This document shows positions 36,419 through 62,301 of a stretch of 64,000 nt of DNA, piece after piece. Numbering within the stretch: the stretch's first letter is position 1; each line of letters opens with the position of its first letter. This DNA comes from Acutalibacteraceae bacterium (lineage in GTDB: Bacteria; Bacillota; Clostridia; Oscillospirales; Acutalibacteraceae), in NCBI GenBank assembly GCA_045542535.1, contig JAZQLF010000027.1:14793-78792 (forward strand). The letters run 5' to 3'. The notes below the pieces were generated by a model that saw nothing but the letters and a program-made list of their open reading frames with translations, was not told the DNA's origin and did no database searches. The translations under genes and the position numbers were made by a program.

Positions 36419-36455
36419 ACCGCGTAATTGAATGGCACCATTCAATTACGCGGTT
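36419..36455. terminator. Bidirectional terminator shared by the PqqD-like and NTase genes
   Basis: ACCGCGTAATTGAATGG-CA-CCATTCAATTACGCGGT, a 17-bp perfect stem. The right arm abuts the NTase stop codon. Confidence 0.8.
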
Positions 36456-37675
36456 TATTCTTTTTCAAACAATTTCAAACTATCAAAAAGCTCTGTCCTC
36501 TGCTTTGCTTCGGAAACGAAACTGTTAACCTTTATTTTAGGTCTTTCCCCTTTTAATGAACGAAAAACATATCTTCCACCGAAATAAACCCAACCAACAG
36601 GCAAAAGTATTTTATTTTTCTCTGCGCGTTTCCAATTATTTTTAACGGATTGATTCACATACTCAATGAATCTGCCGATTTGGCTTTTATCTCTATGCTC
36701 TTCGTCTCCGTATTTAGGAAGAATCATACTTTCGTGGCTTCTGTCGTCACTTTTCTGACCTAAATTTCCACCTTTGAAAATATCTTGCGCCAATGCATCA
36801 ACAATTTTTTCATCGACCTGACCTACCCATTTTTTCGCAGGGCAGGAAAGATATTTTTCGCAAACTTTTGTTAAAACACAAGCAAAATTCCAAAGGCCAA
36901 TATTTTTGAATTTTGCTTGAAATAAATCAATAAATTCATTTTCGGGAACGGAATTCACAAAAACTGCCCAGTCGCAAAGGTGACGAAGACCCACACCGGA
37001 GCTTGTAAGGTGGTGGCAGGTATGAAGCAGTATAATCAATCCGTGGTGAAAAGGTGACGGAACTGAAATCCCACCAAAAAGGGTATTTCGATTTTCCGCT
37101 TTCTCCAAAATATCCGCTAAATAAGTTTTAACCAACGCCCCTGCTTCACCCTTAGGCATACCTGCAGGAGCGGTGTGAAGCTCATATCTGCAAACTCCGT
37201 CTGTAAAAACCAAATGGTCGCCGTGGGATTTTTCTGATACCACAAAGCCGTTTTGCTCTAACGCTTGGCAAGTCTTTTTCAAATCACTTTCATTAACAAG
37301 AAAATCCACATCACCCATTGACCGCAAAAGAAAATCAGGGTAATAAAGAGCAGAAGCCAGACCTTTTAAAATAACATAAGAAATACCTGAATCAGTAAGA
37401 ATCTTATGAATTTTAAAATGACTTTTATTTACCGTAAGGTTATCTGACATTCGGCTTTGAAGATTTTTTCTTATATTGGAAAAATCTGCAGCTAAAGTCA
37501 GATCCTCGGAAAAATCTGAAAAGGCTATAAGAGAAACTGCCTGCATATAGGCCTCATACCAAACCAAGCGCCAATCCAAAGAAACGCCATCAATGGACTT
37601 ACCTGCACCAAATAAATTGTTTGCAAGCAAATCCAGAAGAACCTGTTCATTTTTATTCAAAACGCTTTCGGTCAT
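36455..37675 (-). CDS. Uncharacterised nucleotidyltransferase-family protein (NTP_transf_5-like)
   Basis: NTase-fold motif SMGDVDFLV, then HTCHH...GLRHLCDW typical of that family as I recall it. Last gene of the glycan operon, 34 nt after wzt. Confidence 0.6.
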   Translation of the reverse strand: MTESVLNKNEQVLLDLLANNLFGAGKSIDGVSLDWRLVWYEAYMQAVSLIAFSDFSEDLTLAADFSNIRKNLQSRMSDNLTVNKSHFKIHKILTDSGISYVILKGLASALYYPDFLLRSMGDVDFLVNESDLKKTCQALEQNGFVVSEKSHGDHLVFTDGVCRYELHTAPAGMPKGEAGALVKTYLADILEKAENRNTLFGGISVPSPFHHGLIILLHTCHHLTSSGVGLRHLCDWAVFVNSVPENEFIDLFQAKFKNIGLWNFACVLTKVCEKYLSCPAKKWVGQVDEKIVDALAQDIFKGGNLGQKSDDRSHESMILPKYGDEEHRDKSQIGRFIEYVNQSVKNNWKRAEKNKILLPVGWVYFGGRYVFRSLKGERPKIKVNSFVSEAKQRTELFDSLKLFEKE

Positions 37676-37709
37676 TTATACGTATCTCCGATTTTTAATT
37701 AATAATTAT

Positions 37710-38978
37710 TTATTCACTTTCAATTTGCTCAACACAAGGAATAACCGCATTACCCCAGTCCTTGAACCAGTGCTTGAGGTGAACCGAATTATCACAATGT
37801 TCAATTCCAATTTTCATACAGATATATCGATCATAATACTCAATATTTCCAATTTCATCCTCGATATAAAAAACATGCTCTATTGCATACTTACCGGGAA
37901 CTAAAAAAGACGTATTCAATTCAAAATCACAAAAATTCTCGCCTTCTTTAAAATCAACATCGCCTACTAAACAAAGACCAACAGGAGTAAGGTCGACACC
38001 CTTAATTATAAACTTTAAAAGCAGTCTTCCGGCATCTATTTGACTAAACCAATTCATACGAAAACGAACAACATCGCCATAATTAAAAATATTATTATCT
38101 GCACCCAGAAGTTCAACACTATTTAGTTTGTGTTTAGCATTACACTTAGGAGAACGTTTAAACTCAGTCAAATCAAAAAATGCTGTATTATCAAGTTTTT
38201 CATCTTGAACATATACCGCTATACTCTCTTGAACTGAACCAACAAAAGCAACCTTGCCTTGTTTTAATACAACACACCTATCACAAAGACTTTTTACCGT
38301 CGCCATATTGTGACTTACATATAAAACTGTTCTTCCTTCTTCTGAAGCAACCTTTTTCATTCTTTCGATGCACTTATTCTGAAAATTAACATCTCCAACA
38401 GCAAGAACCTCATCCATAATCATAATTTCAGAATTAAGATGAGATGCTACAGCAAAGCCCAATTTAACCCGCATGCCACTTGAATAGCGTTTAACAGGAG
38501 TATCTATAAACTGTCCCACTTCAGAAAACTCTACAATTTCATCAAACTTTTCGTCTATTTCCGATTTACTCATACCGAGAATTGCACCATTGAGATACAC
38601 ATTCTCTCGACCTGTCAGTTCTTCATGGAAGCCTGTTCCAACTTCTAACATAGAGGTTATTCTACCGTTAATAAAAATCTTGCCTCTTGTGGGTGCAGTA
38701 ACACGACAAATCAGTTTCAACAAAGTTGATTTACCAGCTCCATTATGTCCGATGATACCAATCGCTTCACCTTTTTTTATCTCCAATGATATATCGTTAA
38801 GAGCAAGAAATTTTTCGTTTTTATCGTAAGACTTTTCACCAATTTTAAGATTGGGGTCTTCTTTTTTTCGGATTTTTGCCAATTTTGATTGCAACTCCGC
38901 TTTCAGTGTTCCGCCACCTATAGTTCCTAATCTGTATTCTTTAGAAACATTTTCTATTTTTATTGCTAACTCTTCCAT
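37710..38978 (-). CDS. Glycan-export ABC transporter ATP-binding protein (Wzt/TagH-like) with C-terminal extension
   Basis: GHNGAGKST, YSSGMRVKL and IMDEVLAVGD, plus a ~170-aa C-terminal beta-rich domain. Confidence 0.85.
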   Translation of the reverse strand: MEELAIKIENVSKEYRLGTIGGGTLKAELQSKLAKIRKKEDPNLKIGEKSYDKNEKFLALNDISLEIKKGEAIGIIGHNGAGKSTLLKLICRVTAPTRGKIFINGRITSMLEVGTGFHEELTGRENVYLNGAILGMSKSEIDEKFDEIVEFSEVGQFIDTPVKRYSSGMRVKLGFAVASHLNSEIMIMDEVLAVGDVNFQNKCIERMKKVASEEGRTVLYVSHNMATVKSLCDRCVVLKQGKVAFVGSVQESIAVYVQDEKLDNTAFFDLTEFKRSPKCNAKHKLNSVELLGADNNIFNYGDVVRFRMNWFSQIDAGRLLLKFIIKGVDLTPVGLCLVGDVDFKEGENFCDFELNTSFLVPGKYAIEHVFYIEDEIGNIEYYDRYICMKIGIEHCDNSVHLKHWFKDWGNAVIPCVEQIESE

Positions 38979-38990
38979 AATGTACCTCTG

Positions 38991-39848
38991 TTAAATCGTA
39001 TCAAGGAATGTTTTTTCTACTTTTGCAAAAACACGAACAGCTAAACCAACAACTATAATTGTAATAATCCAGCTAATGCCATAATAAAGCCAATCTATTT
39101 CTCCTATACCCAAAAAAGCATATCTAAAAACATTAATAATAGGTGTTACTGGATTGAGCATGTAAATATTATACAACATGCTTCCGGGCATAAGTTGCGA
39201 ACGGCTGAACATATCGTAAGCCACAGGGGAACAGTAACTCCAGAGACTTATTCCAAAACCCACGACCATCTGTAAATCCCTATATTTAGTAGTTAAAGAC
39301 GATACTATTACACCTATTCCCATTCCGAGTGCTGCAAGCTGAACGAGTAACACCGGCAACATCAAAACATACATGTTGGATGAAACGCCTGAATCTGTTG
39401 CAGTATAATAAACAAGAAAACACAACATAAAAATAAACTGAATTGTAAAGTTTATAAACTGTGAAATTGCAGTTGAAATTGGCATTACCAACCTTGGGAA
39501 ATAAACTTTTGAAAAAATATGCTTGTTGGTAATGAAAGTATTCGCATTCTGATTAAGACTTCCTGAGAAAACACTCCAAGCAATATTACCGCACAAATAA
39601 AATATAAAATTAGGAACGCCCTCAGCACCTAAACCTGCAATATTACCAAAAAAAACAGAGTACACCACAGTAGTAAAAAATGGCTGAATAATAGCCCACG
39701 CCGGCCCTAATATAGTCTGCTTATATTTCGAAACAAAATTTCTTCTAACCCAAAGAAAAATCAAATCCTTGCTTTTGATAATTTCCTTTATATCAACTTT
39801 GGTTTTACTGCCACTGTCTACAATAACAGTCCAGTTTTGTTCAGACAT
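38991..39848 (-). CDS. ABC-2-type glycan-export permease (Wzm/TagG-like)
   Basis: 6-TM protein whose N-terminus FVSKYKQTILGPAWAIIQP is typical of ABC-2 permeases. Confidence 0.85.
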   Translation of the reverse strand: MSEQNWTVIVDSGSKTKVDIKEIIKSKDLIFLWVRRNFVSKYKQTILGPAWAIIQPFFTTVVYSVFFGNIAGLGAEGVPNFIFYLCGNIAWSVFSGSLNQNANTFITNKHIFSKVYFPRLVMPISTAISQFINFTIQFIFMLCFLVYYTATDSGVSSNMYVLMLPVLLVQLAALGMGIGVIVSSLTTKYRDLQMVVGFGISLWSYCSPVAYDMFSRSQLMPGSMLYNIYMLNPVTPIINVFRYAFLGIGEIDWLYYGISWIITIIVVGLAVRVFAKVEKTFLDTI

Positions 39849-39862
39849 GATTAAACCACCTT

Positions 39863-41086
39863 TTACAAAGACTCAATAACATTTAGCCATTGATTTACAA
39901 TATTCTCAACAGAAAGTTCTTCCCTGACTTTATAAGCGTTTTTACCGCATCTTTCTGCCAGACCTTCTTCTGATGCCATTCTGCACATAGCCTTATATAA
40001 AGCATCCACATCTTTTACAGGAACAAGCAGACCATTTTCACCGTCAGTTATCATTTCTCTTGCTCCGCCACCCAAACAATCGGTACAAATACAAGGGAGC
40101 CCCATTGCCATTGCTTCAATCATTGAGTTTGAAAGGCCTTCGGAGTCGGATGAGGAAACGAACATTCCGTAATCCTCTATTTGTTGGTGAATATTTGTAA
40201 CAGCTTCAAAAATTTCAACTTTTTCACTAATACCCAAATCGTTAATATGCTTAATAACTTCAGCTTTGTAATTCTCCGCGATTCGAGTAGATGTCGCTCC
40301 ATATATGTGAAGTACATAGTCAGGAAAATCAACCGAAAACCGACTAAATGCATCTACTAATAAAATCAAGTTTTTAACCGGATGAGTACGACAAAAATTA
40401 ACAATTGTATGTTGTCTTTCACCGGAGAAAAATGGTGACAATTGTGTAGTTAGGGGGTTTTTTATAACTTTACTATTACGTTTCACACATTTTCCGTAGT
40501 ACTCTTTTTGTTTAGTCGTTTGGAAAACACAATAATCACCTTTTTTCAAAAGCTTTAATAGCACCTTATTATAAAGACGCATGTTCTCTTTATTATCCTT
40601 GAAGTCAGGTGAACTCGCATCTGTAAAAATAATTTTGCAATTCAAGCCTTGTATAGCATAATATATTTTCTCATAGATACCAATACCAAAACAGATAAAT
40701 ATTGCCTCTCGTTTACATAAAGCGAAAGCCCTCAGAAAAGCTATCCCCTCAAGATTATTTTTTTGCCTTTTCACCTTTAAATCATCATACCCACACAATT
40801 TTGCAAGTCTGTGCAAAATATGCAAATATTTAAATTTTTTGTCTCGCCATACAGTCGCCTGTTTTTTCTCTTTTAGCGCAACAGAATCCCTTGCAAAATC
40901 CGCCATACAGATAAGTTCAACCCCATCTGCTAATTCATACACCACATCAGAATATATTTTTTCCAACACTAAATATGTAACATCGTAACCTTTCTCCGCA
41001 AAGCTATTGGCAAGTACCGTCGCCCGTCTTTCTGTTCCTCCATTGACAAAATTTTTAGTAACAATAACAATATGTTTTTTTTGCAT
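39863..41086 (-). CDS. Glycosyltransferase family 4 (paralogue group A)
   Basis: NGGTERR N-terminus. C-terminus FVSSSDSEGLSNSMIEAMAMGLPCICTDCLGGGAREMITDGENGLLVP. Confidence 0.85.
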   Translation of the reverse strand: MQKKHIVIVTKNFVNGGTERRATVLANSFAEKGYDVTYLVLEKIYSDVVYELADGVELICMADFARDSVALKEKKQATVWRDKKFKYLHILHRLAKLCGYDDLKVKRQKNNLEGIAFLRAFALCKREAIFICFGIGIYEKIYYAIQGLNCKIIFTDASSPDFKDNKENMRLYNKVLLKLLKKGDYCVFQTTKQKEYYGKCVKRNSKVIKNPLTTQLSPFFSGERQHTIVNFCRTHPVKNLILLVDAFSRFSVDFPDYVLHIYGATSTRIAENYKAEVIKHINDLGISEKVEIFEAVTNIHQQIEDYGMFVSSSDSEGLSNSMIEAMAMGLPCICTDCLGGGAREMITDGENGLLVPVKDVDALYKAMCRMASEEGLAERCGKNAYKVREELSVENIVNQWLNVIESL

Positions 41087-41106
41087 GCAAACGCAATCTC
41101 CTTATT

Positions 41107-42081
41107 TCAGCGCAATATGCGTTTCTTTTTTGGTAGCTCTATATACTCACCAAATGTATAGTTCCATTCAGATGGATTAAGGTTAGCAAATCCACCCGTT
41201 GGGAAAAATGTTATCTCACCAAAATATATATTGCCCTGAATGTTATATAAATCAACCCTGGAATATGGCAGTGATTGAGATAATTGCCCCGCTATATCTT
41301 TCATTTCTTTGAAATTCTTCGGAATCTGAACAGAACTATTTGCCGGCAAGTTCGGATACACCTCATGTATTATAGGCAAATGATTATAACCCATATCAAA
41401 ATAATCCAAATATTTTTCACCATTTTCAGCAGAAAGAACATATAATATTTGGGGAGAACCATTAAAACAATGAAACTTATAATCCGTAAGGGTATCATTA
41501 ACACCGTCACTCATATACTTTTCACATATTATCTTTCTTTTTATATGCTTATACGGCCATTCTCTGCTAGCTTTATAAAAGTTTATTTCTAACCTTCTTT
41601 TAAGAAAAGTTTTAACATCATCGATATCGTTTAGTGATCTTTTTTTGCACATAAAATCATTGTTTTTTTTGTCCCGACAAATAACAACCTCCGAATCATG
41701 GTTGCATTTCAGAACAAACGCATTTGGAAGGGCATCAAAATCAATTTCTTCTACCTTATCGTACACCCCAAGAAGAGGAACCAGATATTCTTCACCAATT
41801 TTTCCTTTGATATATTCACGAACACGATATTTATCTACCATCATGGTATATTCAGGTTTTCTATTATAAAGCTTTAACCAATTTAATTTCTCATTAAAGG
41901 TCACAGGATTTTTCAAATTTAGTTCTTGTCCGGTACGCTTTTTATACAATTTCTTTAAATAAATCTTATCTGGTAGCAGAGAAGTATAGGAACCCTCTAC
42001 TGTAAAATAAGCTTTATAAAAACCTTTTATATTCTTTAAAATACGTTTTTTAAATTCATATAATTTCTCAATTAGCATCAT
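41107..42081 (-). CDS. TupA-like ATP-grasp amidoligase-family protein
   Basis: NLKNPVTFNEKLNWLKLYNRKPEYTMMVDKYRVREYI, with C-terminal DLY...IYFGEITFFP. Confidence 0.7.
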   Translation of the reverse strand: MMLIEKLYEFKKRILKNIKGFYKAYFTVEGSYTSLLPDKIYLKKLYKKRTGQELNLKNPVTFNEKLNWLKLYNRKPEYTMMVDKYRVREYIKGKIGEEYLVPLLGVYDKVEEIDFDALPNAFVLKCNHDSEVVICRDKKNNDFMCKKRSLNDIDDVKTFLKRRLEINFYKASREWPYKHIKRKIICEKYMSDGVNDTLTDYKFHCFNGSPQILYVLSAENGEKYLDYFDMGYNHLPIIHEVYPNLPANSSVQIPKNFKEMKDIAGQLSQSLPYSRVDLYNIQGNIYFGEITFFPTGGFANLNPSEWNYTFGEYIELPKKKRILR

Positions 42082-43404: not shown

Positions 43405-43653
43405 TCAATTTTCGTCCGCAAATTTTCTTATGCCTTTTTCAACCTTTGACTGAGCCAAATAAAGCTCGTCAGCAGAAAGGCGGAACGGAATCTGAAAATC
43501 TTTAAAACTCCCGTTACCGCTTCGCACGTTGACGCAAAAATTATAATGCTCTCCGCCGTCACGGGTGTCAAAGCAGGAATCGGGTATAGAATAAAGATAT
43601 TTTCTGCCCTTATATTCATAAGAGAAAATCTCCATATCATCTCTTTGTTTCAT
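43405..43653 (-). CDS. Small hypothetical protein
   Basis: 82-aa ORF (possibly 76 aa from MEIF) with no family recognised. It is flanked by 55- and 66-nt gaps inside the operon. Confidence 0.45.
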   Translation of the reverse strand: MKQRDDMEIFSYEYKGRKYLYSIPDSCFDTRDGGEHYNFCVNVRSGNGSFKDFQIPFRLSADELYLAQSKVEKGIRKFADEN

Positions 43654-43719: not shown

Positions 43720-44979
43720 CTATTTTTTGTTATAAAATAAACTTAAAGTATTTATAATAGGTTTGTTTCTCTTTATCAATTTATTAAGTTCATCGATTTG
43801 TGCTTTATTGACTATCGTAGGCATATCAACATTAGTTTTTTCTCTTGACATAAATACATTATCTTGATTAATATTTTCAACCAGACCACATTTCCTTAAG
43901 AAGCCTTCAAAAGCATCAAATTTTTGGGGGAAATTTTCATTAAATTTACTGTAGTCTGTTTCTAAATACCAATCATATAAACCCTTCTTTTTTAAGTCTT
44001 TGGAAGGTTTAATGTGCGGTATGTCAAAGAATTCTGTCATCTCTCTTGTTCGGGCATCCATAGTATAACACAATGATGGTACACCTGATAGAACCGGCAT
44101 AATAGTTCCATGAATTCGGCTACCGAAAGAAAAAGCCACCTTGTTTTGAACATAATAACTCATCCATTGCTGTGTATCTGCAAACAACTTTATCCTATTA
44201 TCTGCAAGCGCTTGAACAAAATCACAATCGCCACGCTTTACATATTTTAAAACTCGCCTTAATGCAAAAGGATTATTCTTAATAAATTCAGGGTCATAAA
44301 GGAATTTACCATACTTATCCTGACAAATAAAATGAGATGTTTTTATATTTTTATGGCTTACCGGGAGTTTAAATGTTCCGTTTATAGTTGCTGTAAAATC
44401 CTTCTGTGACACTTTATCGTTTGATATTAACAAATTTCTCCCCATTTGATAAAGCGAGGGGCAACCTGTAACAACTGCCTCCTTGAATCCTAAACGATGA
44501 AAAAACTCTTCAGTAAAATATCCTCTCAGAGCAAACTGCCCACCGGTATTATAAACTGACTTTATAAATCTTGTAGCGGGTTCTTTTAATGTTACAACAA
44601 GGTCATCAATTTCATCATATGAATTTGCTTGAATACCACAAGCAATAACATAAACAGGAATCTTTAATTTTTCTATATAAGTTACTCTTTTTTCAAGATA
44701 TTGTATCCAACCTTTGTGAAAGCAATTTGCTAATGGTAACAAAACACAATCAAAATTACTATTTATGTAGTCCGCTGTCAAATCCTCATATCCATATTCA
44801 TATGTATTTTCGGGAACACTTATCGCGGATATTATGCCTTGTAACCAAACCTTGTTACCAAAATTCGGAATTTTACCATCCAACTCTTTTCGAGCTCTTT
44901 CTGCAAGAGTGCTGTAATCAGTTGGCCTGAAATCGCTCATACCTAATTTGTTTGGCGGATAAAAAATCAAAATTCTCAT
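43720..44979 (-). CDS. Polysaccharide pyruvyl transferase-family protein
   Basis: NFGNKVW near the N-terminus and a late GSRIHG motif, resembling the CsaB/WcaK-type pattern. Confidence 0.55.
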   Translation of the reverse strand: MRILIFYPPNKLGMSDFRPTDYSTLAERARKELDGKIPNFGNKVWLQGIISAISVPENTYEYGYEDLTADYINSNFDCVLLPLANCFHKGWIQYLEKRVTYIEKLKIPVYVIACGIQANSYDEIDDLVVTLKEPATRFIKSVYNTGGQFALRGYFTEEFFHRLGFKEAVVTGCPSLYQMGRNLLISNDKVSQKDFTATINGTFKLPVSHKNIKTSHFICQDKYGKFLYDPEFIKNNPFALRRVLKYVKRGDCDFVQALADNRIKLFADTQQWMSYYVQNKVAFSFGSRIHGTIMPVLSGVPSLCYTMDARTREMTEFFDIPHIKPSKDLKKKGLYDWYLETDYSKFNENFPQKFDAFEGFLRKCGLVENINQDNVFMSREKTNVDMPTIVNKAQIDELNKLIKRNKPIINTLSLFYNKK

Positions 44980-48344: not shown

Positions 48345-48349
48345 TTCTT

Positions 48350-51707: not shown

Positions 51708-51711
51708 ACAC

Positions 51712-52644: not shown

Positions 52645-52662
52645 ACTTTCACCTACCTATAA

Positions 52663-53913: not shown

Positions 53914-55129
53914 CTTTTATTCCTTCCCATCTTATAACATCCTCAAAAAATAAAGGTAAAACAAGCAAAACCGTACAATATATTGAATATGTAACTGAAT
54001 TCAACAATGATACTATCAGCAGAGAAACAAGAACAGCATTTCCCATTCTCCTGATTTGAAGATTATCATACTTTTCTTTGTAATAATTGGGAACAGAATA
54101 AAAGGCTTTTATAAAAAACCATCCGCCCCATAAACCATATTTTGCTAAAGTATCAAGGAAACCGGAGTGACCACCGCCGCTACCTCTCCACAATGCACCG
54201 ATGATTGGATATTTTGACATAAGCTCTAAGCTATTCATATAGCGAATAATACGGGCTTGAATAGATCCCTCTGCGGCACCGGTCTCGCTTGTTGCCACAA
54301 GGTCATTAATTTTCTTTGCAACCGCAGTACCGTCGAAGCTCTCCAAAAGCCACTCTCTGAAGCCATCCCAATAAACAATAGAGAACATAATCGAAGCCAA
54401 AATCACACCCGCTACCACAAAGGCTTTAATACCGCTTTTTCCGTTATAAAAAAACAATATTATCGCTCCGACAGCGCTTGTAAAAATAGCTATAGAATAA
54501 CCCGCTTTTGAAATAAGCTGAACAAAGCTTATTGCCCAAACAACACCTATGGCAAAGTAAATCTTATTGTATTTAAATGATTTTATTATCCACATTAATA
54601 TAGCCGAAAACATACAAACCTGAGGATAAATAAGACTATAACCACCTACACCCTGCCTTAAATATTCATATGTAGTTTCATCATCGCGAACTATCTTACG
54701 GGCAATGGTCGGGTCAATGATCAGTGCTTGTACAGTTTTGTAATTCCAAATTATAAACAAAACCAAAACTATAGGTATAAGCCACTTGAGTTCTTCCCAA
54801 TGTTTCTTATAAAAGCTATTCATAATAAAGCAAACAACTAACATAAAAAACGCAATTTGCTTTAAAATTCCTCTGAAATCACCATTATCTATGAAGGTTA
54901 CACCTATAACGGTGAAAAGGAAAAGTATGGAAAGCAACTGATTTTTGTCGAGAACAACGGGATTTTCTCTTATTAACCAAACGCCTGCCCAAATGGCAAG
55001 TGCCCCCAGCACAATTATTCTGTAAATTAAATCAATTTCCAAGGGAGGCGATATAGACCATATAACAAGGTATGCTACGGCAAATGATTGAATTGTTCCG
55101 TAATTGAAACCTTTTTTCACCATAGCCAC
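53891..55129 (-). CDS. Wzy_C/O-antigen-ligase-family polytopic membrane protein (polymerase, ligase or O-oligosaccharyltransferase)
   Basis: About 10-12 TM segments and a late exoplasmic loop ending GGGHSGFLDTLAKYGLWGG, similar to the H-N/S-x-F/Y-L....G Wzy_C signature. Confidence 0.7.
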   Translation of the reverse strand: MAMVKKGFNYGTIQSFAVAYLVIWSISPPLEIDLIYRIIVLGALAIWAGVWLIRENPVVLDKNQLLSILFLFTVIGVTFIDNGDFRGILKQIAFFMLVVCFIMNSFYKKHWEELKWLIPIVLVLFIIWNYKTVQALIIDPTIARKIVRDDETTYEYLRQGVGGYSLIYPQVCMFSAILMWIIKSFKYNKIYFAIGVVWAISFVQLISKAGYSIAIFTSAVGAIILFFYNGKSGIKAFVVAGVILASIMFSIVYWDGFREWLLESFDGTAVAKKINDLVATSETGAAEGSIQARIIRYMNSLELMSKYPIIGALWRGSGGGHSGFLDTLAKYGLWGGWFFIKAFYSVPNYYKEKYDNLQIRRMGNAVLVSLLIVSLLNSVTYSIYCTVLLVLPLFFEDVIRWEGIKDENTLDG

Positions 55130-55139
55130 CTCCTATTTT

Positions 55140-56258
55140 TTATTCAAGCCAAGTTTTTGCGCTATCACGATATTCTTTGTAATCAAACGTGGTTTTCAAG
55201 TCCGGAATTGCTTCCGTTTTCCCTTTTTCCAAAACACGCTGCATTGCAAGATAAACACTTTCTACTGTTGTGTTTTCGAGCAATATACTGTCAGAACTGT
55301 TTTTAGCATATTCTTTTATATCACTTACGTCAGTGGTTATTACAGGAACCCCGCACGTATAACTTTCAACAAACTTTGTGGGAAAACCTGCATTATTTCT
55401 CCTATCTGACAGCCGTATAAATATATAACAATCGCAACCTTTGATTTCTTTTATTGTTTGCTTATGTGTTTGTTTTCCAAGAAAACGAATTTGATTTTTT
55501 CGCTGTTCTTTGATTTTTATTTGTGGGTATAAGCAATTAAATTCATCTCGGGTAATTCCTACAACATTCAGTTGTATGTCAGTATGGTCAAGAAGTTGAA
55601 ATGCTTCTACAACTTTATCTAAACTATCTTTGTTGCCGTCAGGAAATCCGGCAAAGCAAAATGTAAAGTTATCGGTATTTTTTTCAACCTTTTGATGCCA
55701 GATTCCATCATCAATATCTACGAGTGGTGGCAAACGCAAAACATTTTGGTTTTTTTTGTATGACTCTTCCATGGTTTTGCTGATAACTATGACTTTATCT
55801 GCAATCTTGTGGACAAGGCTTCTAACAAAAAACTCATCAATATATTTAAATGCCTTTTTCAAAAAAGAGCCTTCCGTAAACTGAGTCCATTCGGTGCAAT
55901 CGTACGCTACTGCAATCCCCTTTTTTGAAAAATATTTTTTAGCTAAAACAAGGGTGATAAAAGGAACATTATAAAGCAACACCATTTTAAGATTTTCATA
56001 TTCATCCGCAAGTTTTTTGAGGTTAGAAAAGTTTAAAATCTGCTTTAGCCATTCCTTTGAAGTTTCCGGATGCGGTTCTTCAAACATATTTTCAGAAATC
56101 TGCCACATTCCTGAAAGTGTACCATCGTAGCAAGCACCTAAAAAAACTGCTTTATAGCCTAAAGAATCAAATAACTTTCCGTTGGAAACCACTCGATTCG
56201 CTGCAGCGTTTTTATCAGGGAGAGCAAATCCGCCGTAGTAAATTATTGTGCCCTTCAA
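55140..56258 (-). CDS. Glycosyltransferase (GT-B fold)
   Basis: C-terminal IFIRLSDRRNNAGFPTKFVESYTCGVPVITTD. The only in-frame start at the 5' end is a TTG. Confidence 0.7.
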   Translation of the reverse strand: MKGTIIYYGGFALPDKNAAANRVVSNGKLFDSLGYKAVFLGACYDGTLSGMWQISENMFEEPHPETSKEWLKQILNFSNLKKLADEYENLKMVLLYNVPFITLVLAKKYFSKKGIAVAYDCTEWTQFTEGSFLKKAFKYIDEFFVRSLVHKIADKVIVISKTMEESYKKNQNVLRLPPLVDIDDGIWHQKVEKNTDNFTFCFAGFPDGNKDSLDKVVEAFQLLDHTDIQLNVVGITRDEFNCLYPQIKIKEQRKNQIRFLGKQTHKQTIKEIKGCDCYIFIRLSDRRNNAGFPTKFVESYTCGVPVITTDVSDIKEYAKNSSDSILLENTTVESVYLAMQRVLEKGKTEAIPDLKTTFDYKEYRDSAKTWLE

Positions 56259-56353
56259 GACAAAATCTCCTTATACAATTCAATAGTAGCGGTTGTCTTT
56301 GTAATAATCCAATCAAGATTAGCAAGAAACATATCAAAGTTTTTATAACTCAT
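56255..56353 (-). pseudogene. 32-codon ORF resembling a glycosyltransferase C-terminal tail (possible gene remnant)
   Basis: My translation is MSYKNFDMFLANLDWIITKTTATIELYKEILS. Its TGA overlaps the TTG start of the next gene. It has no obvious RBS. Confidence 0.25.
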
Positions 56354-56385
56354 AGCTACATCTAAAACTTTTTATTAACTAAAAA

Positions 56386-57522
56386 CTAAAGTAGTTCGTT
56401 TATTTTTTTCATATATGCATCAATAACTATATCTCGTGAAAAATTCGTATTGATATACTCTCTGCCTTTTTCACCCATCATTTTTCTTTCTTCGTTGGGC
56501 AAAGCAAGGAATTTTTCTATTTTCTCGCACAATTCATTAACATTTCCGCCGTGATACATAAAACCGGTTTCTCCGTCAATAAAAGTTTCCATACAGCCAG
56601 GATTATCCGTTGAAATTATCGGTCTTCCGGAAGACGCACTTTCAAGAAGAACATTGCTCATACCCTCACCGTAGGTAGAAGGATGAATAATAGCATGAGA
56701 TTTTCTGATAAATGGTTTCGTATCCTTTTGGCTTCCATGAAATTTAATAATACCTTTATTTTGAAGCTTTTCTAAATCCTCGTAATAATGTGATTCTGTC
56801 TCTTCCACAAAACCCAACATATTAAACTCGGTATTAGGATATTTCTTTTTTATTCTTTTAGCCGCTTCTATGTAATCCTCCACGCCTTTATCCTTCAGAA
56901 TTCTTCCCACATAGTTAAAAACGATTTTTTCTCCCTCTATACCATTTCCACCTTCGGGATACTCTTGCAAAGGAAAACGTTTTGTATTCACCCCCGAGCC
57001 GGGAATGAGCTTGATTTTGCCTTTAACCATACCATTCTCTAATGCTATTTTCATATTTGTTTCATTTTGGAACATAACGCATTGTGCACGTCTGTAAGAA
57101 AATTTAAAAAGCTTCATTACAAATTTTTGTACAAAACTACCCTTTTTTAAAACACTACCGAAGCCGGTAACATTTGAGATGACCGGTATTTTAAACAGAT
57201 GTGCTGCCATGGCACCATAAACATTGGGTTTGGCTGTATAAGTTAAAACAATATCAGGTCGATATCGTTTAATAAGTGAGTAATAATGACAAAACAATTT
57301 TATGTCTGCAATAATGTTTGTACCCCGTCTGTCTATGGCAGGGTTATCGTATATATATTCAATATGCTGCATTAATTCAAATTTTTCACCATACGGACAG
57401 GAGATTAAAACATCATACCCCTTTTCAACAGCAGCCTCAACAAGTTCTTTTCTGAAGCAATATATATCGTCATCATTGTTGGTAAAAATAGCAACGAGTT
57501 TTTTGTCGTTTTTTATCTTCAT
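56386..57522 (-). CDS. Glycosyltransferase family 4
   Basis: IHPSTYGEGMSNVLLESASSGRPIISTDNPGCMETFIDGETGF. ATG at 57522 gives MKIKNDKKLVAIF. Confidence 0.85.
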   Translation of the reverse strand: MKIKNDKKLVAIFTNNDDDIYCFRKELVEAAVEKGYDVLISCPYGEKFELMQHIEYIYDNPAIDRRGTNIIADIKLFCHYYSLIKRYRPDIVLTYTAKPNVYGAMAAHLFKIPVISNVTGFGSVLKKGSFVQKFVMKLFKFSYRRAQCVMFQNETNMKIALENGMVKGKIKLIPGSGVNTKRFPLQEYPEGGNGIEGEKIVFNYVGRILKDKGVEDYIEAAKRIKKKYPNTEFNMLGFVEETESHYYEDLEKLQNKGIIKFHGSQKDTKPFIRKSHAIIHPSTYGEGMSNVLLESASSGRPIISTDNPGCMETFIDGETGFMYHGGNVNELCEKIEKFLALPNEERKMMGEKGREYINTNFSRDIVIDAYMKKINELL

Positions 57523-57526
57523 AAAT

Positions 57527-58249
57527 TCACCGCGATTCCACAATATCCGGAATTTCTTTTGTTTTATCATTTAAAAAAACAGTTGTAACTGTTAAAAACA
57601 TTGTTTTTACTTCTTGTAACAAGCTAAAGTTTTCAACGGCATTTAAATTATGCACCATTTTAGCGGGTAACACCGTTTCAATATATGTTTTCTCAGGTTC
57701 AGCCGAATCATTAAGTATTTGTGTTTCATTACGATAAAACACACTCGCTTGAGATGTTATACCTGCAGGTAATAAAAGCGTAGCCTTCATTTCAGGGGAA
57801 TACTTGTTTACATATTCAGGAACCTCGGGACGAGTCCCCACAAAAGTCATAGTACCTCTTAAAACATCAAGCAACTGACTAAGCTCATCAATTTTATATT
57901 TTCTGATAAAACGTCCGACTTTTGTAATTCTTTCATCTTCACCTACAGTTAACTGAGAACCCTTATCTGCCCCTTCAACCATAGACCTGAATTTGAAAAT
58001 CCTGAACTTTTTTCCGTACCTTGTAACTCTTTCCTGTCTGTAAAAAACAGGACCTTTTGAATCAAATTTAATTGCAGCAGCAAGTATTAAGAAAAATGGT
58101 GACAATAATATAAGCAAGAAAAAAGACACTATAATATCAAACAATCTTTTTAAAAATAAGCTGAATCGTTTTTTGTTTAATATATCATAATATTTTTTTA
58201 CTTCCGGAATTTTAAGTTCTTCCGGTAAATCTTCCCACTTACAAAGCAC
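57527..58249 (-). CDS. Initiating undecaprenyl-phosphate sugar phosphotransferase (small bacterial sugar transferase, PF02397-type)
   Basis: KRLFDIIVSFFLLILLSP...PVFYRQERVTRYGKKFRIFKFRSM...GTRPE. GTG start follows GGAAAGGGGTGG. Confidence 0.85.
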   Translation of the reverse strand: MLCKWEDLPEELKIPEVKKYYDILNKKRFSLFLKRLFDIIVSFFLLILLSPFFLILAAAIKFDSKGPVFYRQERVTRYGKKFRIFKFRSMVEGADKGSQLTVGEDERITKVGRFIRKYKIDELSQLLDVLRGTMTFVGTRPEVPEYVNKYSPEMKATLLLPAGITSQASVFYRNETQILNDSAEPEKTYIETVLPAKMVHNLNAVENFSLLQEVKTMFLTVTTVFLNDKTKEIPDIVESR

Positions 58250-58268
58250 TTATGCCACCCCTTTCCTG

Positions 58269-59774
58269 TTATTCTTCATCTTCTTTTACTGTGTCAATAT
58301 CCTTTGGTCTGATTTTTTCATCTTCGTAACCATAGCCATATTTTTTATAGCCATAACCGTAACCCTTGTACCCATAGCCATAGCCATAATTCTTGTAGCC
58401 GTAGCCATAACCGTAACCACTTGTCCCGCCGATTGTTCCGTTAAGAACACAACCTAAAACTTTAATGTCGGTAGAAAGCAGGTTGTTAAGTGTGCTTTTG
58501 ATTTTTCCTATTCTGACTACATCTTGGTATATTATGTATATTGCTGCGTCTGCTGCCTGAGCAATAAACATCGCATCAGAAACCAGACCGCAAGGAGGTG
58601 TATCAACGAGTATATAATCAAACTTGTTTCTCAAATCGTCAAAAACACTTTTTGCAAAAGCAGTAGAAACATAACCATCCTTTTCATCATCTGAAAAAAC
58701 AAACCTTAAAAGTGAAATATTATATTTTTCTATATATGCAATTTCATATTTATCTGAAACAGTTTGATATTCAATCTCATCTACATCAATATCCAACAAT
58801 GGCGCAACACTCGGGTTTCTCAAATCTGCGTCCACAAGCAAAATGTTCTTTTTACGTTTCGCCATAGAAAGAGCAAGATTTGTTATTACCGTTGTTTTTC
58901 CTTCGCTGGGAGCGGTACTCGTAACAACCACAACTTTTTCATTATCTTCAAGACTGTTTATAACCACATTTCTGCAAACTCTGACAGATTCTGAAAAAGC
59001 CGAAGGAATTTTTTCATTTGTTATAAGCAAAGAGGTATCCGTTTTTTCTCCTATTTTTTTGAAGACAATTTTCGGAACAGTACCCAAAACTGTGTTGTTA
59101 AGTTCTGTTGTAATTTCGTCCTTTGTTCTGATAGTATTTCTGAATACTGCATATAAGAAAATCAAGACAACGCCAACCAACAAACCAAAAGTTGAACCGG
59201 TGATAAAATTCTTTTTAATTTCCTTGGAGTTTGAAGGATTTCTGGGAAAAACAGGAGCCGTAATCATATCCATTTTTATATTACCGATAACGTGCTTTGC
59301 AACGCTGGGGTAATTATCAATTACGGAAATCAGGGTATCGTAAGTCTTTTGGGGATCTTTTCCCACTGTGGTAAGTTTAAACATATTCGTCCCTTTAACC
59401 ACAGTTGCCGAAACAGAAGCCGGCATTCCTTCCACACCTAATTCGGTACAGACAATTTCCTGCAAAAGATTACTGCTGAGAATATGAGGAAAGGTGGAAG
59501 CAAGCTGTTCGGCAGTAGTTGTATCATAATGATAAGAATATTTAGAAAGCCCTGTATTTGCGCCGGAAACACTTTGCATACTAACAACAAAGGTTGCCGA
59601 AACACTGTATGTAGGACTGTAACTCAAAACACCCCTGACTGCAAGTCCGCCACCGAACAACACAGCCAAAGCTATACAAACCCACCAAAGCTTTTTTACA
59701 CCTTTGATAAAGTCGGTTAAATAAATTTTAAAATGAGCTTCAACCTTGTTTGAACTTTTTTGGTCTTTTACCAT
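58269..59774 (-). CDS. Fused Wzz-domain / BY-kinase (polysaccharide co-polymerase tyrosine autokinase), copy B
   Basis: Two TM segments flank an exoplasmic domain. Walker A is TSTAPSEGKTT, followed by DADLRNP and ILVDTPP. The tail has 14 Tyr. Confidence 0.85.
   Translation of the reverse strand: MVKDQKSSNKVEAHFKIYLTDFIKGVKKLWWVCIALAVLFGGGLAVRGVLSYSPTYSVSATFVVSMQSVSGANTGLSKYSYHYDTTTAEQLASTFPHILSSNLLQEIVCTELGVEGMPASVSATVVKGTNMFKLTTVGKDPQKTYDTLISVIDNYPSVAKHVIGNIKMDMITAPVFPRNPSNSKEIKKNFITGSTFGLLVGVVLIFLYAVFRNTIRTKDEITTELNNTVLGTVPKIVFKKIGEKTDTSLLITNEKIPSAFSESVRVCRNVVINSLEDNEKVVVVTSTAPSEGKTTVITNLALSMAKRKKNILLVDADLRNPSVAPLLDIDVDEIEYQTVSDKYEIAYIEKYNISLLRFVFSDDEKDGYVSTAFAKSVFDDLRNKFDYILVDTPPCGLVSDAMFIAQAADAAIYIIYQDVVRIGKIKSTLNNLLSTDIKVLGCVLNGTIGGTSGYGYGYGYKNYGYGYGYKGYGYGYKKYGYGYEDEKIRPKDIDTVKEDEE
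58323..58427 (-). repeat. Coding tandem repeat for the (GY)n-K tail
   Basis: It encodes GYGYGYGYKNYGYGYGYKGYGYGYKKYGYGY. The DNA shows reiterated GTAGCC/ATAGCC units. Confidence 0.85.
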
Positions 59775-59779
59775 AAAAC

Positions 59780-61267
59780 TTAATCCTCTGTTGTGTTTTT
59801 ATAATTTCCGTACTTACTGTATTTTGAATATTTACTGTACTTCCCATATTTACCGTATTTGTGGTAACCGTATTTATATCTTCCGTAGTGTCTGTAACCG
59901 CCTTCATCAATGCCCGACATACTGAAAAGAGTGAAATCAGGATAAACATCATTAAGAATACATCCAAAAATTTTTCCGCCTACATTGTTTATTGTTGTAA
60001 GTGTGTCATTAATAACAGCTGAAGAAACAACATCTGTACGAACAACAAGTATTGTTTCATCTGCAATTTCACTCATATCAGTAACAGTTGTATCTGCGGA
60101 AATGGGTGCAGTATCAATAATAACAAAATCCATACTCTCCCGAAGAAAGCCCATAAGCTTTTTGCATTTTTCGCCATGAAGCCACTCATGGTAATTTTTA
60201 TGGGGCATAGTATTAACGGCTAAATACAGTGAGCTTTTCTTAAAGCGTTTAATTTTCAATTCATTCGCAGATTCGTCTTTAAAATAATTTCCAAGTTCTG
60301 TTTGTTCGTTATATTTAACGCCGAAAATTTTATAAAGAGCAGGTTTTTTACCATCAAAATCGATAAGAGCTACCTTATGACCTCTTTCTGCAAGAGAAAC
60401 AGCAATATTAGAAGCAACTGTTGATTTACCTTCGTTTTCCGCAACGCTTGTAACTGCAAAAACTTTGCTTCTGTTGTTATGCTTTTCTCTCTCAAGCTTT
60501 GCAGCGATTGTGTGGAACTGCTCTGAAAATTTAAGACTTATAAACGCATTCCCTACTATAAGCAAAGATTTTTTCTTTTTGTTAAGTCGGTCTTCTATTG
60601 TCATTCTTTTATTTTCGTGAGGAACAACGCCCAAAAGCTTCGCGTCAATTCGATCTTCAAACGCCGCTACATTTTTCACAGTATCTCTTAAAACAGATAA
60701 AACCAAAATCGCAAATATCACAACAACCGCAATGGCGGAAATGATAATGTTTGTATTAGTACTTGAAACCGCATTAGTTGCATTTTTAGGAACCGTAGGC
60801 GGAGTCAGCACATTAATAACCGCATTTTCAAAAATATTATCTGAAATTTCGGGATAAACCACCAACACGGATTTCAAAAGGTCGTAGGCTGCCTGAGGAT
60901 CTCCGCTCGTAACGCTTATTCTCAAAAAGTTTGTTGATTCGAGAACACTTGCTGAAATTCTTCCGTTAAAATAATCATAGCCTGCGTGAGCTGCAGCACG
61001 TTCTTTCATAGCAGGTTCAATAAACACATTTGTGTAAATATCTGCCATTTCAGAAGAAGTTGAGAAATACGAAAAAGCACTATTTCCCGAACCCTTTGTG
61101 CTGACAACCAAGGTCGCGCTTGAAGTATATTCCGGCTCGTAAACAATGGTATCAACAATGTAAATTCCCATATAGCCAATGAGAACGCTGAGAACAACAA
61201 CCCAAAGATTTTTTATTAAATCTTTTAAAATACTGTGCCATTCAATTATAATTTTATTTCTATCCAT
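59780..61267 (-). CDS. Fused Wzz-domain / BY-kinase-like protein, copy A
   Basis: Same architecture as copy B. Walker A is TSVAENEGKST, followed by LIDFDGKKP and VIIDTAP. The tail has 12 Tyr. Confidence 0.8.
   Translation of the reverse strand: MDRNKIIIEWHSILKDLIKNLWVVVLSVLIGYMGIYIVDTIVYEPEYTSSATLVVSTKGSGNSAFSYFSTSSEMADIYTNVFIEPAMKERAAAHAGYDYFNGRISASVLESTNFLRISVTSGDPQAAYDLLKSVLVVYPEISDNIFENAVINVLTPPTVPKNATNAVSSTNTNIIISAIAVVVIFAILVLSVLRDTVKNVAAFEDRIDAKLLGVVPHENKRMTIEDRLNKKKKSLLIVGNAFISLKFSEQFHTIAAKLEREKHNNRSKVFAVTSVAENEGKSTVASNIAVSLAERGHKVALIDFDGKKPALYKIFGVKYNEQTELGNYFKDESANELKIKRFKKSSLYLAVNTMPHKNYHEWLHGEKCKKLMGFLRESMDFVIIDTAPISADTTVTDMSEIADETILVVRTDVVSSAVINDTLTTINNVGGKIFGCILNDVYPDFTLFSMSGIDEGGYRHYGRYKYGYHKYGKYGKYSKYSKYSKYGNYKNTTED
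59798..59896 (-). repeat. Coding tandem repeat for the K/Y-rich tail
   Basis: It encodes YRHYGRYKYGYHKYGKYGKYSKYSKYSKYGNYK. Confidence 0.85.
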
Positions 61268-61273
61268 AATTAA

Positions 61274-62089
61274 TTACCCAACAACCACAATAAGAACAGT
61301 GTGACCTTTGTTATCATTACGGTCTTCTGCGTAATAATGAACAAGGTAGGTACCCTCTTTTTTCATGTTAATTTTTGTTTCGATTGTTACATCGTCAGTA
61401 ATATCTCTTTCTTCGCTGTCAGTAGCGCTTACTAAATAATCTTCGAAATCTAATTTTTCGCCTTTATCGGCATAAATTAAATACTTCTTCAGCTTGATTT
61501 CAGGGGCTGCCTCGCTTCTGTCCTCAACAATAAGCGGAATGTCCAAAACAGCGGTATCGCCTTTTTCGGTGGTAACTCTTGCATTAATAGTGAAAACGCC
61601 TGTTACAGATTTTGTGTAGTCATCGCTGGTTAAAATCATATCGGATGTAATATCACCCACAATACTGTCTTTAACACTTATGGCCTTTTTTAGGTTCGGG
61701 GTTTCATATACAGAGTAGCAAAGAGCTTCACTCAATGAAAAACGGGGTGATTCATAATCCTTGTATCTTATTTTTCGGGTGGCGGTTGCAATATTGTTAT
61801 CATTATCGCAAACAGCATATGTAACTCGGCTTACACCCGGTTCAATAAATCTTGAAACAGATTCAATGATAATTTCACTTGTCAGGTCACCGTCTTTTTC
61901 GTCAAAGGCGGTGATGCCTTTTAAAAGCTCTTCATCTGTAGCTTTAAGGCTCACTTCAATTATTTCGCCTTCAACAGTTATTTGAGGAATAGTTGTGTCA
62001 GTTGTGATTTTTTCCCTGATAAAAATGAGAGAGAAGGCAATAAACGTAATTACAAAAAGCGTAAGAACACTACCACGCAAAATTCGCAT
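61274..62089 (-). CDS. N-terminally anchored protein with three Ig-like (DUF5011-like) repeats; first gene of the glycan operon
   Basis: A TM helix is followed by repeats carrying FDEKDGDLTSEI, VKDSIVGDITSDM and ATDSEERDITDDV. I chose the ATG at 62089 after AAAGAGG. The track start at 62119 is a TTG. Confidence 0.6.
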   Translation of the reverse strand: MRILRGSVLTLFVITFIAFSLIFIREKITTDTTIPQITVEGEIIEVSLKATDEELLKGITAFDEKDGDLTSEIIIESVSRFIEPGVSRVTYAVCDNDNNIATATRKIRYKDYESPRFSLSEALCYSVYETPNLKKAISVKDSIVGDITSDMILTSDDYTKSVTGVFTINARVTTEKGDTAVLDIPLIVEDRSEAAPEIKLKKYLIYADKGEKLDFEDYLVSATDSEERDITDDVTIETKINMKKEGTYLVHYYAEDRNDNKGHTVLIVVVG

Positions 62090-62301
62090 ATCCGAAACCT
62101 CTTTAGACTTTATATTCAATGGCAGTTTTTCCCTTAAAATAAGATAAAACTACCGCATTATTAACCATATTATATAATACTATAATATAGCAAAAAAATC
62201 AACAAATTACGACAAATTCGTCGCTTTGTGAAAACAAATAAAAAACATATTTTTACATTCTGTAAAATCATTCATATTTCTCGCATACAAGCACAAACAA
62301 A

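Follow-up and report, generated by a model that had tools for sequence, protein, structure and literature searches.

A conserved Acutalibacteraceae glycan locus joining a Wzm/Wzt exporter and a WaaL-like membrane protein within a BY-kinase frame, without Wzx

Introduction

Textbooks treat the Wzx/Wzy and the ATP-binding cassette (ABC) transporter routes to surface glycans as alternatives. We analysed a 64,000-nucleotide stretch of DNA (the window) from an Acutalibacteraceae bacterium (assembly GCA_045542535.1, contig JAZQLF010000027.1, positions 14,793 to 78,792), which contains a 25.7-kb glycan locus with hallmarks of both routes: genes for a Wzm/Wzt ABC exporter stand together with genes for two fused Wzz/bacterial tyrosine kinases (BY-kinases) and a Wzy_C-like membrane protein, and there is no Wzx flippase gene. 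An initial annotation, made from the sequence alone, had noticed this mixture. The mixture is real and conserved, and mostly resembles known S-layer-glycan clusters.

In the S-layer glycan (slg) clusters of Geobacillus stearothermophilus NRS 2004/3a and Paenibacillus alvei, a PF02397 initiator (WsaP/WsfP), Wzm/Wzt and a Wzy_C transferase (WsaB/WsfB) occur without Wzx, a combination which the authors called unexpected (PMC2943079). These Gram-positive clusters are polycistronic, low in GC and rich in overlapping genes. After initiation, adaptor and chain are assembled in the cytoplasm and exported by Wzm/Wzt, and the exported glycan is transferred by the Wzy_C-domain membrane enzyme; Wzt-type binding of the terminal cap, in Geobacillus a 2-O-methyl cap, has been predicted (PMC2943079). 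The locus described here resembles them in its gene arrangement, has the same set of initiator, exporter and Wzy_C-like protein without Wzx, and is predicted to follow the same steps of assembly, export and transfer. Unlike in the slg clusters, the initiating polyprenyl-phosphate glycosylphosphotransferase (PGT) is small and monotopic (240 aa) instead of WbaP type, 12 glycosyltransferases (GTs) are present compared to about four, and rml genes are absent, this copy having lost its sugar-nucleotide genes. With 410 aa the Wzy_C-like protein is short; it contains no TPR and scores below the Pfam threshold. No S-layer or SLH (S-layer homology) protein was identified, and the glycan genes lie inside a double BY-kinase frame, for which slg clusters have no counterpart.

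ABC-transporter-dependent O-antigen systems (Escherichia coli O9a; Aquifex Wzm/Wzt, 7K2T/8DKU; WaaL, 7TPG) also employ a Wzm/Wzt pair with a C-terminal Wzt_C domain. Unlike there, the host here is a monoderm and hence offers no lipid A-core acceptor, the ligase-like gene is inside the glycan locus, initiation is by a PF02397 enzyme instead of WecA, many single-linkage GTs are present and BY-kinases are attached. The initial annotation had regarded the two gene sets as normally alternative, a premise which is too strong in its strict form because slg clusters and O-antigen biology already provide examples of the core combination. It had also assigned Wzy_C to the Wzx/Wzy pathway; that goes too far as well, as Wzy_C enzymes also ligate after ABC export (WaaL, WsaB/WsfB; PMC2943079).

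With Firmicutes Wzx/Wzy capsule loci (pneumococcal cpsABCD-type, Bacillus subtilis epsA-O) the locus shares PF02397 initiation, a Wzy-superfamily protein and a Wzz-type modulator plus BY-kinase with a C-terminal tyrosine cluster, and in some congeners a CpsB-type phosphatase heads the frame. Unlike those loci it has no Wzx and no LCP/CpsA, contains Wzm/Wzt, has the modulator and kinase fused and duplicated, and encodes a Wzy-like protein which is conserved and not serotype-variable. The dual-chain rhamnose-rich cell wall polysaccharide loci (Lactococcus lactis cwps, Enterococcus faecalis epa; PMC9574508) likewise place an ABC exporter, a Wzy-like and a Wzz-like protein in one locus with a conserved and a variable part. 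The Wzx-family flippase WpsG, the WpsA/B second initiator, the GT-C linker WpsJ and the rhamnose genes of those loci are all absent here (PMC9574508), and only one polytopic protein other than the transporter is encoded. No BY-kinase plus Wzm/Wzt system of Gram-positive bacteria was found described in the literature searched.

Materials and methods

The genome carrying the window (G000) is 2.38 Mb in 37 contigs and 97 % complete. It was compared with 98 species genomes of the same genus, about 20 loci being read in detail, and with a set of 80 species-representative loci carrying the Wzy_C-like gene. Genomes, contigs and loci are referred to by numbers with the prefixes G, C and L, respectively; feature coordinates are those of the window unless a contig or locus is named.

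Results

A conserved operon-like unit

The locus is a run of 23 back-to-back minus-strand open reading frames (ORFs), window 36455-62119. The ORF list together with Pfam and NCBIfam searches bore out the run, its start/stop overlaps and its gene content as first described. The overlaps are at 44976/44979, 46087/46094, 47292/47295, 49519/49537, 50715/50718 and 53891/53913, their exact size varying with the start codon chosen. The genes encode an Ig-like protein, two Wzz+BY-kinases, a PF02397 PGT, 12 GTs (eight GT4 and four GT2), the Wzy_C-like protein, a PS_pyruv_trans protein, an 82-aa ORF which the first description had not listed, a TupA ATP-grasp protein, Wzm, Wzt and an NTP_transf_5 protein. 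The GC content is 32-36 % compared to 38-41 % in the flanks. No strong terminator was found between 36455 and 62119, and strong hairpins bracket both ends only:

36418..36455, no strand assigned: bidirectional terminator hairpin, 17-bp stem, 3' end of the operon
62300..62332, minus strand: terminator hairpin, 14-bp stem, at the end of the giant-surface-protein unit that precedes the locus; marks the operon's 5' boundary

Because terminators occur at the two ends only and all gaps are at most 127 nt, which is the size of the largest intergenic gap, the run behaves in silico as one transcription-like unit. A consensus promoter scan of the locus gave hits that were not above shuffled expectation, and was hence uninformative. 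Judged from the sequence, the run is one operon-like unit of two nested modules, a regulatory frame and a glycan cassette. The cassette, from the PGT to Wzt, occupies window 37710-58249 (20.5 kb) between the second BY-kinase (BYK2) and the nucleotidyltransferase (NTase).

The combination of both sets of hallmarks without Wzx is not peculiar to G000. At least 11 congeners whose assemblies are contiguous, as well as members of other genera, show the order Ig-BYK1-BYK2-PGT-GTs-Wzy_C-like-GTs-Wzm-Wzt-NTase. An orthologue of the Wzy_C-like protein (at least 52 % identity) is present in about 17 of the 98 species, and in every assembly contiguous enough to test (G113, G021, G062, G014, G078, G101, G061, G065, G058 and G077) its gene lies between BYK1 and the long Wzt on the same strand; G082 shows the Wzy_C-Wzt pair only. 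Outside the genus, linkage of the Wzy_C-like gene to Wzt was found in G114, G135 and G218, and linkage of a BY-kinase to it in G114, G312 and G349. Where contigs allow testing, the Wzy_C-like gene and Wzm/Wzt were never found apart.

A sister, non-orthologous cassette (G087, G079, G092, G084, G007, G009 and G074; L022-L025, L029-L036, L055-L056) encodes a PGT, an aldo-keto reductase, a split transketolase, an acyltransferase-3 protein, GTs, an EpsG-family protein, a Stealth phosphotransferase and a Wzm/Wzt pair that is 51-57 % identical. It lies directly downstream of Ig-BYK1-BYK2 in G087, G079, G092 and G084 and stands alone, far from any BY-kinase, in G007 and G009. The EpsG-type cassette of G074 has no Wzm/Wzt, so that an unlinked transporter must serve, at least there. 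As far as gene content tells, the set of a Wzy-superfamily protein, Wzm/Wzt and a PGT lacking a MOP-family flippase is systematic in the lineage. An ORF of 759-772 aa follows Wzt in the sister cassettes of G087 and G084, and the G087 copy has Cys-rich ferredoxin-like motifs.

The Wzy_C-like protein

53891..55129, minus strand: WaaL/Wzy-superfamily polytopic enzyme, 410-412 aa, about 10-12 transmembrane segments; candidate post-export ligase or polymerase

The Wzy_C label given to this protein in the initial annotation is supported by fold and motif and not by Pfam, where the match stays below the cut-off. In the family, 17 of 27 members match Wzy_C, weakly (E>=9e-5), and a few also weakly match O-antigen polymerase Pfam families. 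The relatives are all hypothetical proteins with no precomputed Pfam domain, and the family profile found no real match among PDB sequences. An AlphaFold2 model built from the 27-sequence alignment had a predicted local distance difference test score of 84.7 and a predicted template modelling score of 0.87. When the model was compared with the PDB by Foldseek, WaaL (7TPG) was the sole match below E=1 (E=5e-4, probability 1.00, template modelling scores 0.51/0.52), and the flippase WzxE scored at noise level.

The residues H319-S320-x9-G330-xx-G333 are invariant in the 27-sequence alignment; the motif stretch of the protein, residues 321-335, is HSGFLDTLAKYGLWG. This is the same pattern as the WaaL motif H[NSQ]X9GXX[GTY], the first residue of which is the catalytic His (bioRxiv 10.1101/2022.10.31.514599). 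Across the 80 species the protein is 48-81 % identical (median 54 %), the medians of the adjacent conserved GTs being 52-72 %. It remains 76-81 % identical in G078, G021 and G014, where the PGT, with or without an adjacent aminotransferase, falls to 56-66 % and other distal GTs take the place of those in G000. In classical systems the gene for the Wzy polymerase ranks with the most variable ones of its locus, and WaaL-type ligases accept varied glycans. A relaxed-specificity ligase would fit the conservation pattern better than a repeat-unit-specific Wzy. Fold, motif and conservation taken together lean towards a ligase-type role, with no proof of it. The family is confined to a few Acutalibacteraceae genera (4 of 185 sampled).

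The Wzm/Wzt exporter

38991..39848, minus strand: Wzm ABC-2 permease (PF01061, E=1.3e-14; best NCBIfam match a galactan Wzm/RfbD permease model)
37710..38978, minus strand: Wzt, 422 aa (PF00005), with an ATPase at about residues 1-257 and a Wzt_C-type carbohydrate-binding domain at about residues 258-422

The PF01061 and PF00005 matches, together with the TagH and galactan Wzt/Wzm models that were best in NCBIfam, identify the pair as Wzm/Wzt. The best PDB match of Wzt was the full-length Aquifex aeolicus O-antigen Wzt (8DKU/7K2T, E=2.7e-63, residues 53-367), followed by TagH and TarH. With residues 258-422, 59 relatives were found, and most of those listed carry PF14524 (Wzt_C), including relatives 74-75 % identical. 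Through these relatives and the Aquifex alignment the C-terminal part is assigned as a Wzt_C carbohydrate-binding domain, as in the capped-chain subtype of exporter.

Within the genus, the ATPase domain of Wzt is 81-92 % identical, compared to 44-79 % for the C-terminal domain. The latter is 79 % identical in G078, which shares GT4_a, TupA and GT4_b with G000, as opposed to 44-47 % in G021, G014 and G012. Divergence of the binding domain thus tracks the variable distal genes, which would be expected if the domain reads a structure made by them. Characterised Wzt carbohydrate-binding domains bind the cap at the non-reducing end.

G000 has a second, short ABC-2 exporter of TagH/TagG type (C25:9896-11475, L048), the ATPase of which has 253 aa and no carbohydrate-binding domain. 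Almost all congeners have it, and it probably serves as the housekeeping exporter of wall polymer.

Absence of a flippase

The initial annotation had found no MOP/Wzx, sugar-nucleotide, LCP or phosphatase gene in the locus, and this stood up: there are no LCP, CpsB phosphatase or sugar-nucleotide genes in 36455-62119, nor a MOP-family Wzx, and the MOP genes, the four LCPs and the one CpsB phosphatase of G000 are all located outside it. A mis-called flippase among the membrane ORFs, which the initial annotation had named as an outcome that would refute its view, was not found. Every ORF was checked for transmembrane segments, Wzm and the Wzy_C-like protein were the only polytopic proteins, and the latter, the only candidate, was folded and matched WaaL and not MOP. 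No MOP-like gene occurred within 10 kb on either side of the Wzy_C-like gene in any of the 80 species loci, and other proteins with at least six predicted transmembrane segments were near it in only two of them. Extra genes in the relatives were considered as a hidden Wzx and proved to encode instead a UDP-sugar dehydrogenase, an epimerase, a DegT aminotransferase and a PglF-like dehydratase. A MOP gene in the window at 18161-19942 was likewise rejected as the missing Wzx, as it has MurJ, Polysacc_synt and MatE domains, lies beside mazG and is read as housekeeping.

A second glycan locus of G000 is of the classical type (C24:28000-47999, L016), with a PGT, GT4s, a 402-aa protein with nine transmembrane segments and a 477-aa Wzx (PF01943/PF13440), as well as a pyruvyl transferase and sugar-nucleotide genes. 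On contig C24 no gene with a Wzz domain was found, and for this reason the C24 locus possibly depends in trans on the kinases of C27.

The regulatory frame

61274..62119, minus strand: Ig-like protein, N-terminally anchored, one transmembrane segment (PF16403); first gene of the frame
59780..61267, minus strand: BYK1, fused Wzz + BY-kinase (Pfam/NCBIfam), Tyr/Lys-rich tail
58269..59774, minus strand: BYK2, fused Wzz + BY-kinase (Pfam/NCBIfam), canonical Walker A, A' and B
36455..37675, minus strand: NTP_transf_5 nucleotidyltransferase, 406 aa (PF14907, E=2.9e-31), downstream edge of the frame
36130..36408, plus strand: PqqD-like ORF, 92 aa (PF05402, E=6e-12), convergent with the NTase; belongs to the frame, not to the cassette

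Two fused proteins thus carry the co-polymerase (Wzz) part with a BY-kinase that is familiar from the Wzx/Wzy pathway, and Walker A, A' and B motifs and the C-terminal tyrosine cluster are recognised. BYK2 has APSEGKT, LLVDADLRNP and ILVDTPP and a GYGYGY... tyrosine tail. The corresponding motifs of BYK1 are ENEGKS, IDFDGKKP and IIDTAP, followed by a Tyr-rich tail; since the Arg of Walker A' is replaced by Lys in this degenerate motif, BYK1 may be a weakened kinase or a pseudokinase.

In relatives, the Ig-like gene is always 5' of BYK1. The NTase is 81 % identical in G078, G021 and G014, and the PqqD-like ORF is 75-82 % identical and syntenic in G021 and G014; a PqqD-like gene also adjoins NTase/Ig/BYK modules in G007 C23 and G084. 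In G007 C10, G055 C23, G054 C20 and G047 C11 (loci L039-L044, L050-L051, L054) the genes CpsB-Ig-BYK1-BYK2-NTase are contiguous, with no glycan genes between them. Because of these cassette-free frames, the Ig/BYK/BYK genes, the NTase and the convergent PqqD gene are read from gene order as a conserved frame into which the genes from the PGT to Wzt have been inserted, and the BY-kinase module as a separable add-on that is not an obligatory part of the cassette. The stand-alone frames suggest a more general regulatory role for the BY-kinases, and it may reach to the Wzx locus on C24. The NTase gene lies upstream of Ig instead in G007 C23, G043 and G020.

A type-I (ABCB/MsbA-like) ABC exporter is encoded about 13 kb upstream of the locus (G000 C27:89556-91286, L015:13357-15087), adjoining a UDP-glucose dehydrogenase, an epimerase and a PAP2 phosphatase. 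Its orthologues (52-79 %) lie directly beside Ig-BYK1-BYK2 in G043, G020, G114, G087 and G092. It could be a PglK-like flippase for lipid-linked glycans; a phmmer search yielded generic ABCB and Sav1866 matches only and no PglK-specific signal.

Anatomy of the cassette

The cassette begins with the PGT (PF02397 E=7e-54; TIGR03025; one transmembrane segment), followed by a proximal block with the order PGT, GT4_h, (dehydrogenase), (epimerase), GT4_g, Wzy_C-like, GT4_f, GT2_d, GT2_c and GT4_e, which is kept in at least 60-78 of the 80 species loci:

57527..58249, minus strand: PGT, small monotopic, PglC-size, 240 aa; 5' end of the cassette
56386..57570, minus strand: GT4_h, first conserved GT after the PGT
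56259..56385, minus strand: epimerase deletion scar, with the MSYKN codons (ATG AGT TAT AAA AAC)
55140..56258, minus strand: GT4_g, conserved proximal block
49519..53913, minus strand: GT4_e, GT2_c, GT2_d and GT4_f, conserved proximal GT block, 57-85 % identical in congeners; order retained in 61-78 of the 80 species loci

The gap at 56.26-56.39 kb, listed in the initial annotation as a place to look for an internal promoter, is real but not mere spacer, as it holds the start of an epimerase remnant. A UDP-sugar epimerase gene is present at this position in G021, G014 and G078, and the gap opens with the first five codons of that gene, which is why it is read as a deletion scar. A dehydrogenase and epimerase pair 88-92 % identical to that of G014 is intact in the Wzx-containing C24 locus of G000, now its only place, and presumably supplies the precursors in trans.

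The distal part is variable, with the order GT4_d, GT2_b, GT4_c, GT2_a, pyruvyl transferase, orf82, GT4_b, ATP-grasp and GT4_a, then Wzm/Wzt:

44976..49537, minus strand: GT2_a, GT4_c, GT2_b and GT4_d, semi-variable distal GT block
43720..44979, minus strand: polysaccharide pyruvyl-transferase-like protein (PF04230, E=1.5e-12), candidate modifying/capping enzyme
43405..43653, minus strand: orf82, 82 aa, GAGGT ribosome-binding site, no transmembrane segment
42132..43349, minus strand: GT4_b (PF00534), distal variable block
41107..42081, minus strand: TupA-like ATP-grasp protein (PF14305, E=2e-54), candidate modifying/capping enzyme
39863..41086, minus strand: GT4_a (PF00534), distal variable block

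The presence and identity (41-88 %) of GT2_a, GT4_c, GT2_b and GT4_d differ between species. Among four compared loci, the pyruvyl-transferase-like gene occurred only in G014 (84 %). The TupA-like gene was found in G078 (76 %) and weakly in G021 (40 %) and was absent in G014 and G012, and GT4_a was 64 % identical in G078 as opposed to 33-45 % in G021, G014 and G012. For orf82 neither a family match nor a homologue in the G078, G021, G014 and G012 loci was found; a promoter-like site, TTGACA-17-CATTAT, lies inside it. A pyruvylated wall polymer for SLH anchoring was considered as the product and is ruled out, the genome having no SLH domains.

Neighbouring genes

Just downstream of the frame (window 30422-34006) is a gene for a secreted protein of 1194 aa with a type I dockerin and a C-terminal BD-FAE/esterase domain, which is 86 % identical and syntenic in G014. 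At the other end, a 409-aa ORF at the window end (62596-63825) is the C-terminal part of a 2356-aa surface protein (L015:1189-8259), which contains Listeria-Bacteroides repeats and a Big_3 domain and is encoded immediately upstream of the operon. Giant proteins homologous to it flank the frame in G021, G014 and G007.

Discussion

The comparative data are best fitted by one of the two options of the initial annotation, in which a chain made inside the cell leaves through the ABC transporter and is acted on outside by the Wzy_C protein. We put the probability at about 0.5 that the locus makes an ABC-transporter-dependent glycan linked to undecaprenyl diphosphate (Und-PP), with WaaL-like transfer after export as in slg clusters, under a BY-kinase frame. 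From gene content and conservation we infer the following order of assembly. The small PGT would prime undecaprenyl phosphate, and the six conserved GTs would make a conserved part proximal to the reducing end. The variable GTs, the pyruvyl transferase and the ATP-grasp protein would then build, decorate or cap the distal part, all of these steps taking place in the cytoplasm. The carbohydrate-binding domain of Wzt may recognise the distal or terminal structure of the finished chain, and Wzm/Wzt would export the complete Und-PP-linked glycan. Outside the membrane the WaaL-fold enzyme would move the glycan from Und-PP to an acceptor, which might be a protein, a wall polymer or a lipid. The BY-kinase pair could tune synthesis or transfer.

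Several observations weigh against this reading. The Wzy_C-like protein scores 16.3 bits against PF04932, below the cut-off of 31.7, and Foldseek cannot tell a ligase from a polymerase here because WaaL was the only member of the fold that was matched. PF14524 was not reported in the Pfam scan of Wzt itself. SLH domains were not found in the G000 genome, no known S-layer gene is adjacent and no acceptor was identified; the surface proteins adjoining the locus are the 2356-aa repeat protein and the Ig-like protein. The number of GTs, at least 12, far exceeds that of typical ABC-dependent homopolymer systems. BY-kinase/Wzz proteins are classical partners of Wzy polymerases. The EpsG family is usually read as a Wzy-type polymerase, and by analogy its member in the sister cassette would keep a polymerase role possible. 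All compared genomes are metagenome-assembled genomes (MAGs), many of them from the hindgut of goat, sheep, deer, cattle and buffalo.

Alternatively, the locus might be a true hybrid. Wzm/Wzt would then stand in for Wzx, flipping single, large repeat units on Und-PP, with the Wzy_C-like protein as the Wzy and the Wzz/BY-kinases as its co-polymerases and chain-length regulators. Such a system is possible and in our view rather unlikely. It would explain why neither the G000 locus nor the 80 related loci have a MOP gene and why Wzz/BY-kinases are directly upstream in most species, and the weak matches of a few family members to O-antigen polymerase families would agree with it. The pairing of an EpsG-family (Wzy-type) protein with Wzm/Wzt in the sister cassette also favours it, and the number of 12-14 GTs, one per linkage, points to a defined oligosaccharide unit and not a processive polymer. 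However, a classical Wzy co-varies with its repeat unit, whereas the protein here is still 48-81 % identical despite changes in the PGT and the distal GTs, and it has the WaaL motif. A Wzt carbohydrate-binding domain is typical of the export of finished, capped chains. In addition, cassettes function with the BY-kinase frame elsewhere in G007 and G009, and the EpsG cassette of G074, being without Wzm/Wzt, implies an unlinked flippase at least in that genome. It is correspondingly doubtful that these monoderm gut Clostridia have a third, mixed route, in which a Wzm/Wzt guided by its carbohydrate-binding domain would act instead of Wzx and feed large Und-PP-linked units to a Wzy-superfamily polymerase set by a Wzz/BY-kinase pair.

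The locus might instead make two chains or glycans, one from the proximal block and the Wzy_C-like protein by way of an unlinked flippase (MOP or type-I ABC), and another from the distal block with Wzm/Wzt; the products would be independent or joined outside the membrane, as in the lactococcal and enterococcal dual-chain wall polysaccharides. Loci of Gram-positive bacteria in which an ABC exporter occurs with a Wzy-like polymerase and a Wzz-like protein have been described (PMC9574508), and the present locus splits into conserved and variable halves. G000 has a dedicated Wzx on C24 and further MOP-like candidates elsewhere, and the conserved type-I ABC exporter accompanies the BYK frame in many genomes, its G000 orthologue being 13 kb upstream. 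The latter is, however, near the Wzy_C-like gene in only 15 of the 80 loci and gives no specific PglK-like signal. Only one initiating transferase is encoded in the locus; a WpsA/B-type second initiator and its small membrane partner, a flippase of the Wzx or GtrA type and a further GT-C transferase are all missing, and the two halves of the locus were never found apart. We find a two-chain product improbable.

That the locus is a chance juxtaposition or an assembly chimera of an ABC locus (36.4-43.4 kb) and a Wzy/BY-kinase locus (43.7-62.1 kb), the fusion point suggested in the initial annotation, is very hard to credit: the region at 43.35-43.72 kb does have a 66-nt gap and a small ORF with a promoter-like hexamer pair inside, and G000 is a MAG, but the two parts are split in none of the genomes examined, more than 14 genomes of several genera, each assembled independently, share the gene order, there is no terminator at the proposed junction, and the region is just part of the variable GT block.

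With respect to the described systems, the following is new. The glycan cassette is nested in a double fused-BY-kinase frame in a monoderm. Its WaaL-fold protein belongs to a family found in few Acutalibacteraceae genera, with no above-threshold Pfam match and no sequence-level PDB match. The cassette also behaves as a plug-in. The Wzt binding domain co-varies with the distal genes. For annotation, the occurrence of Wzy_C together with a BY-kinase should not automatically be taken as Wzx/Wzy-dependent, and a missing Wzx can be genuine. The locus provides a conserved natural case, in dozens of uncultured ruminant-gut Acutalibacteraceae species, of an ABC exporter joined to a WaaL/Wzy-fold enzyme in one cassette, and it shows that a BY-kinase frame can gain or lose this cassette. 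The co-variation of the Wzt domain with the distal genes might offer a link between genotype and structure for surface-glycan diversity in gut anaerobes.

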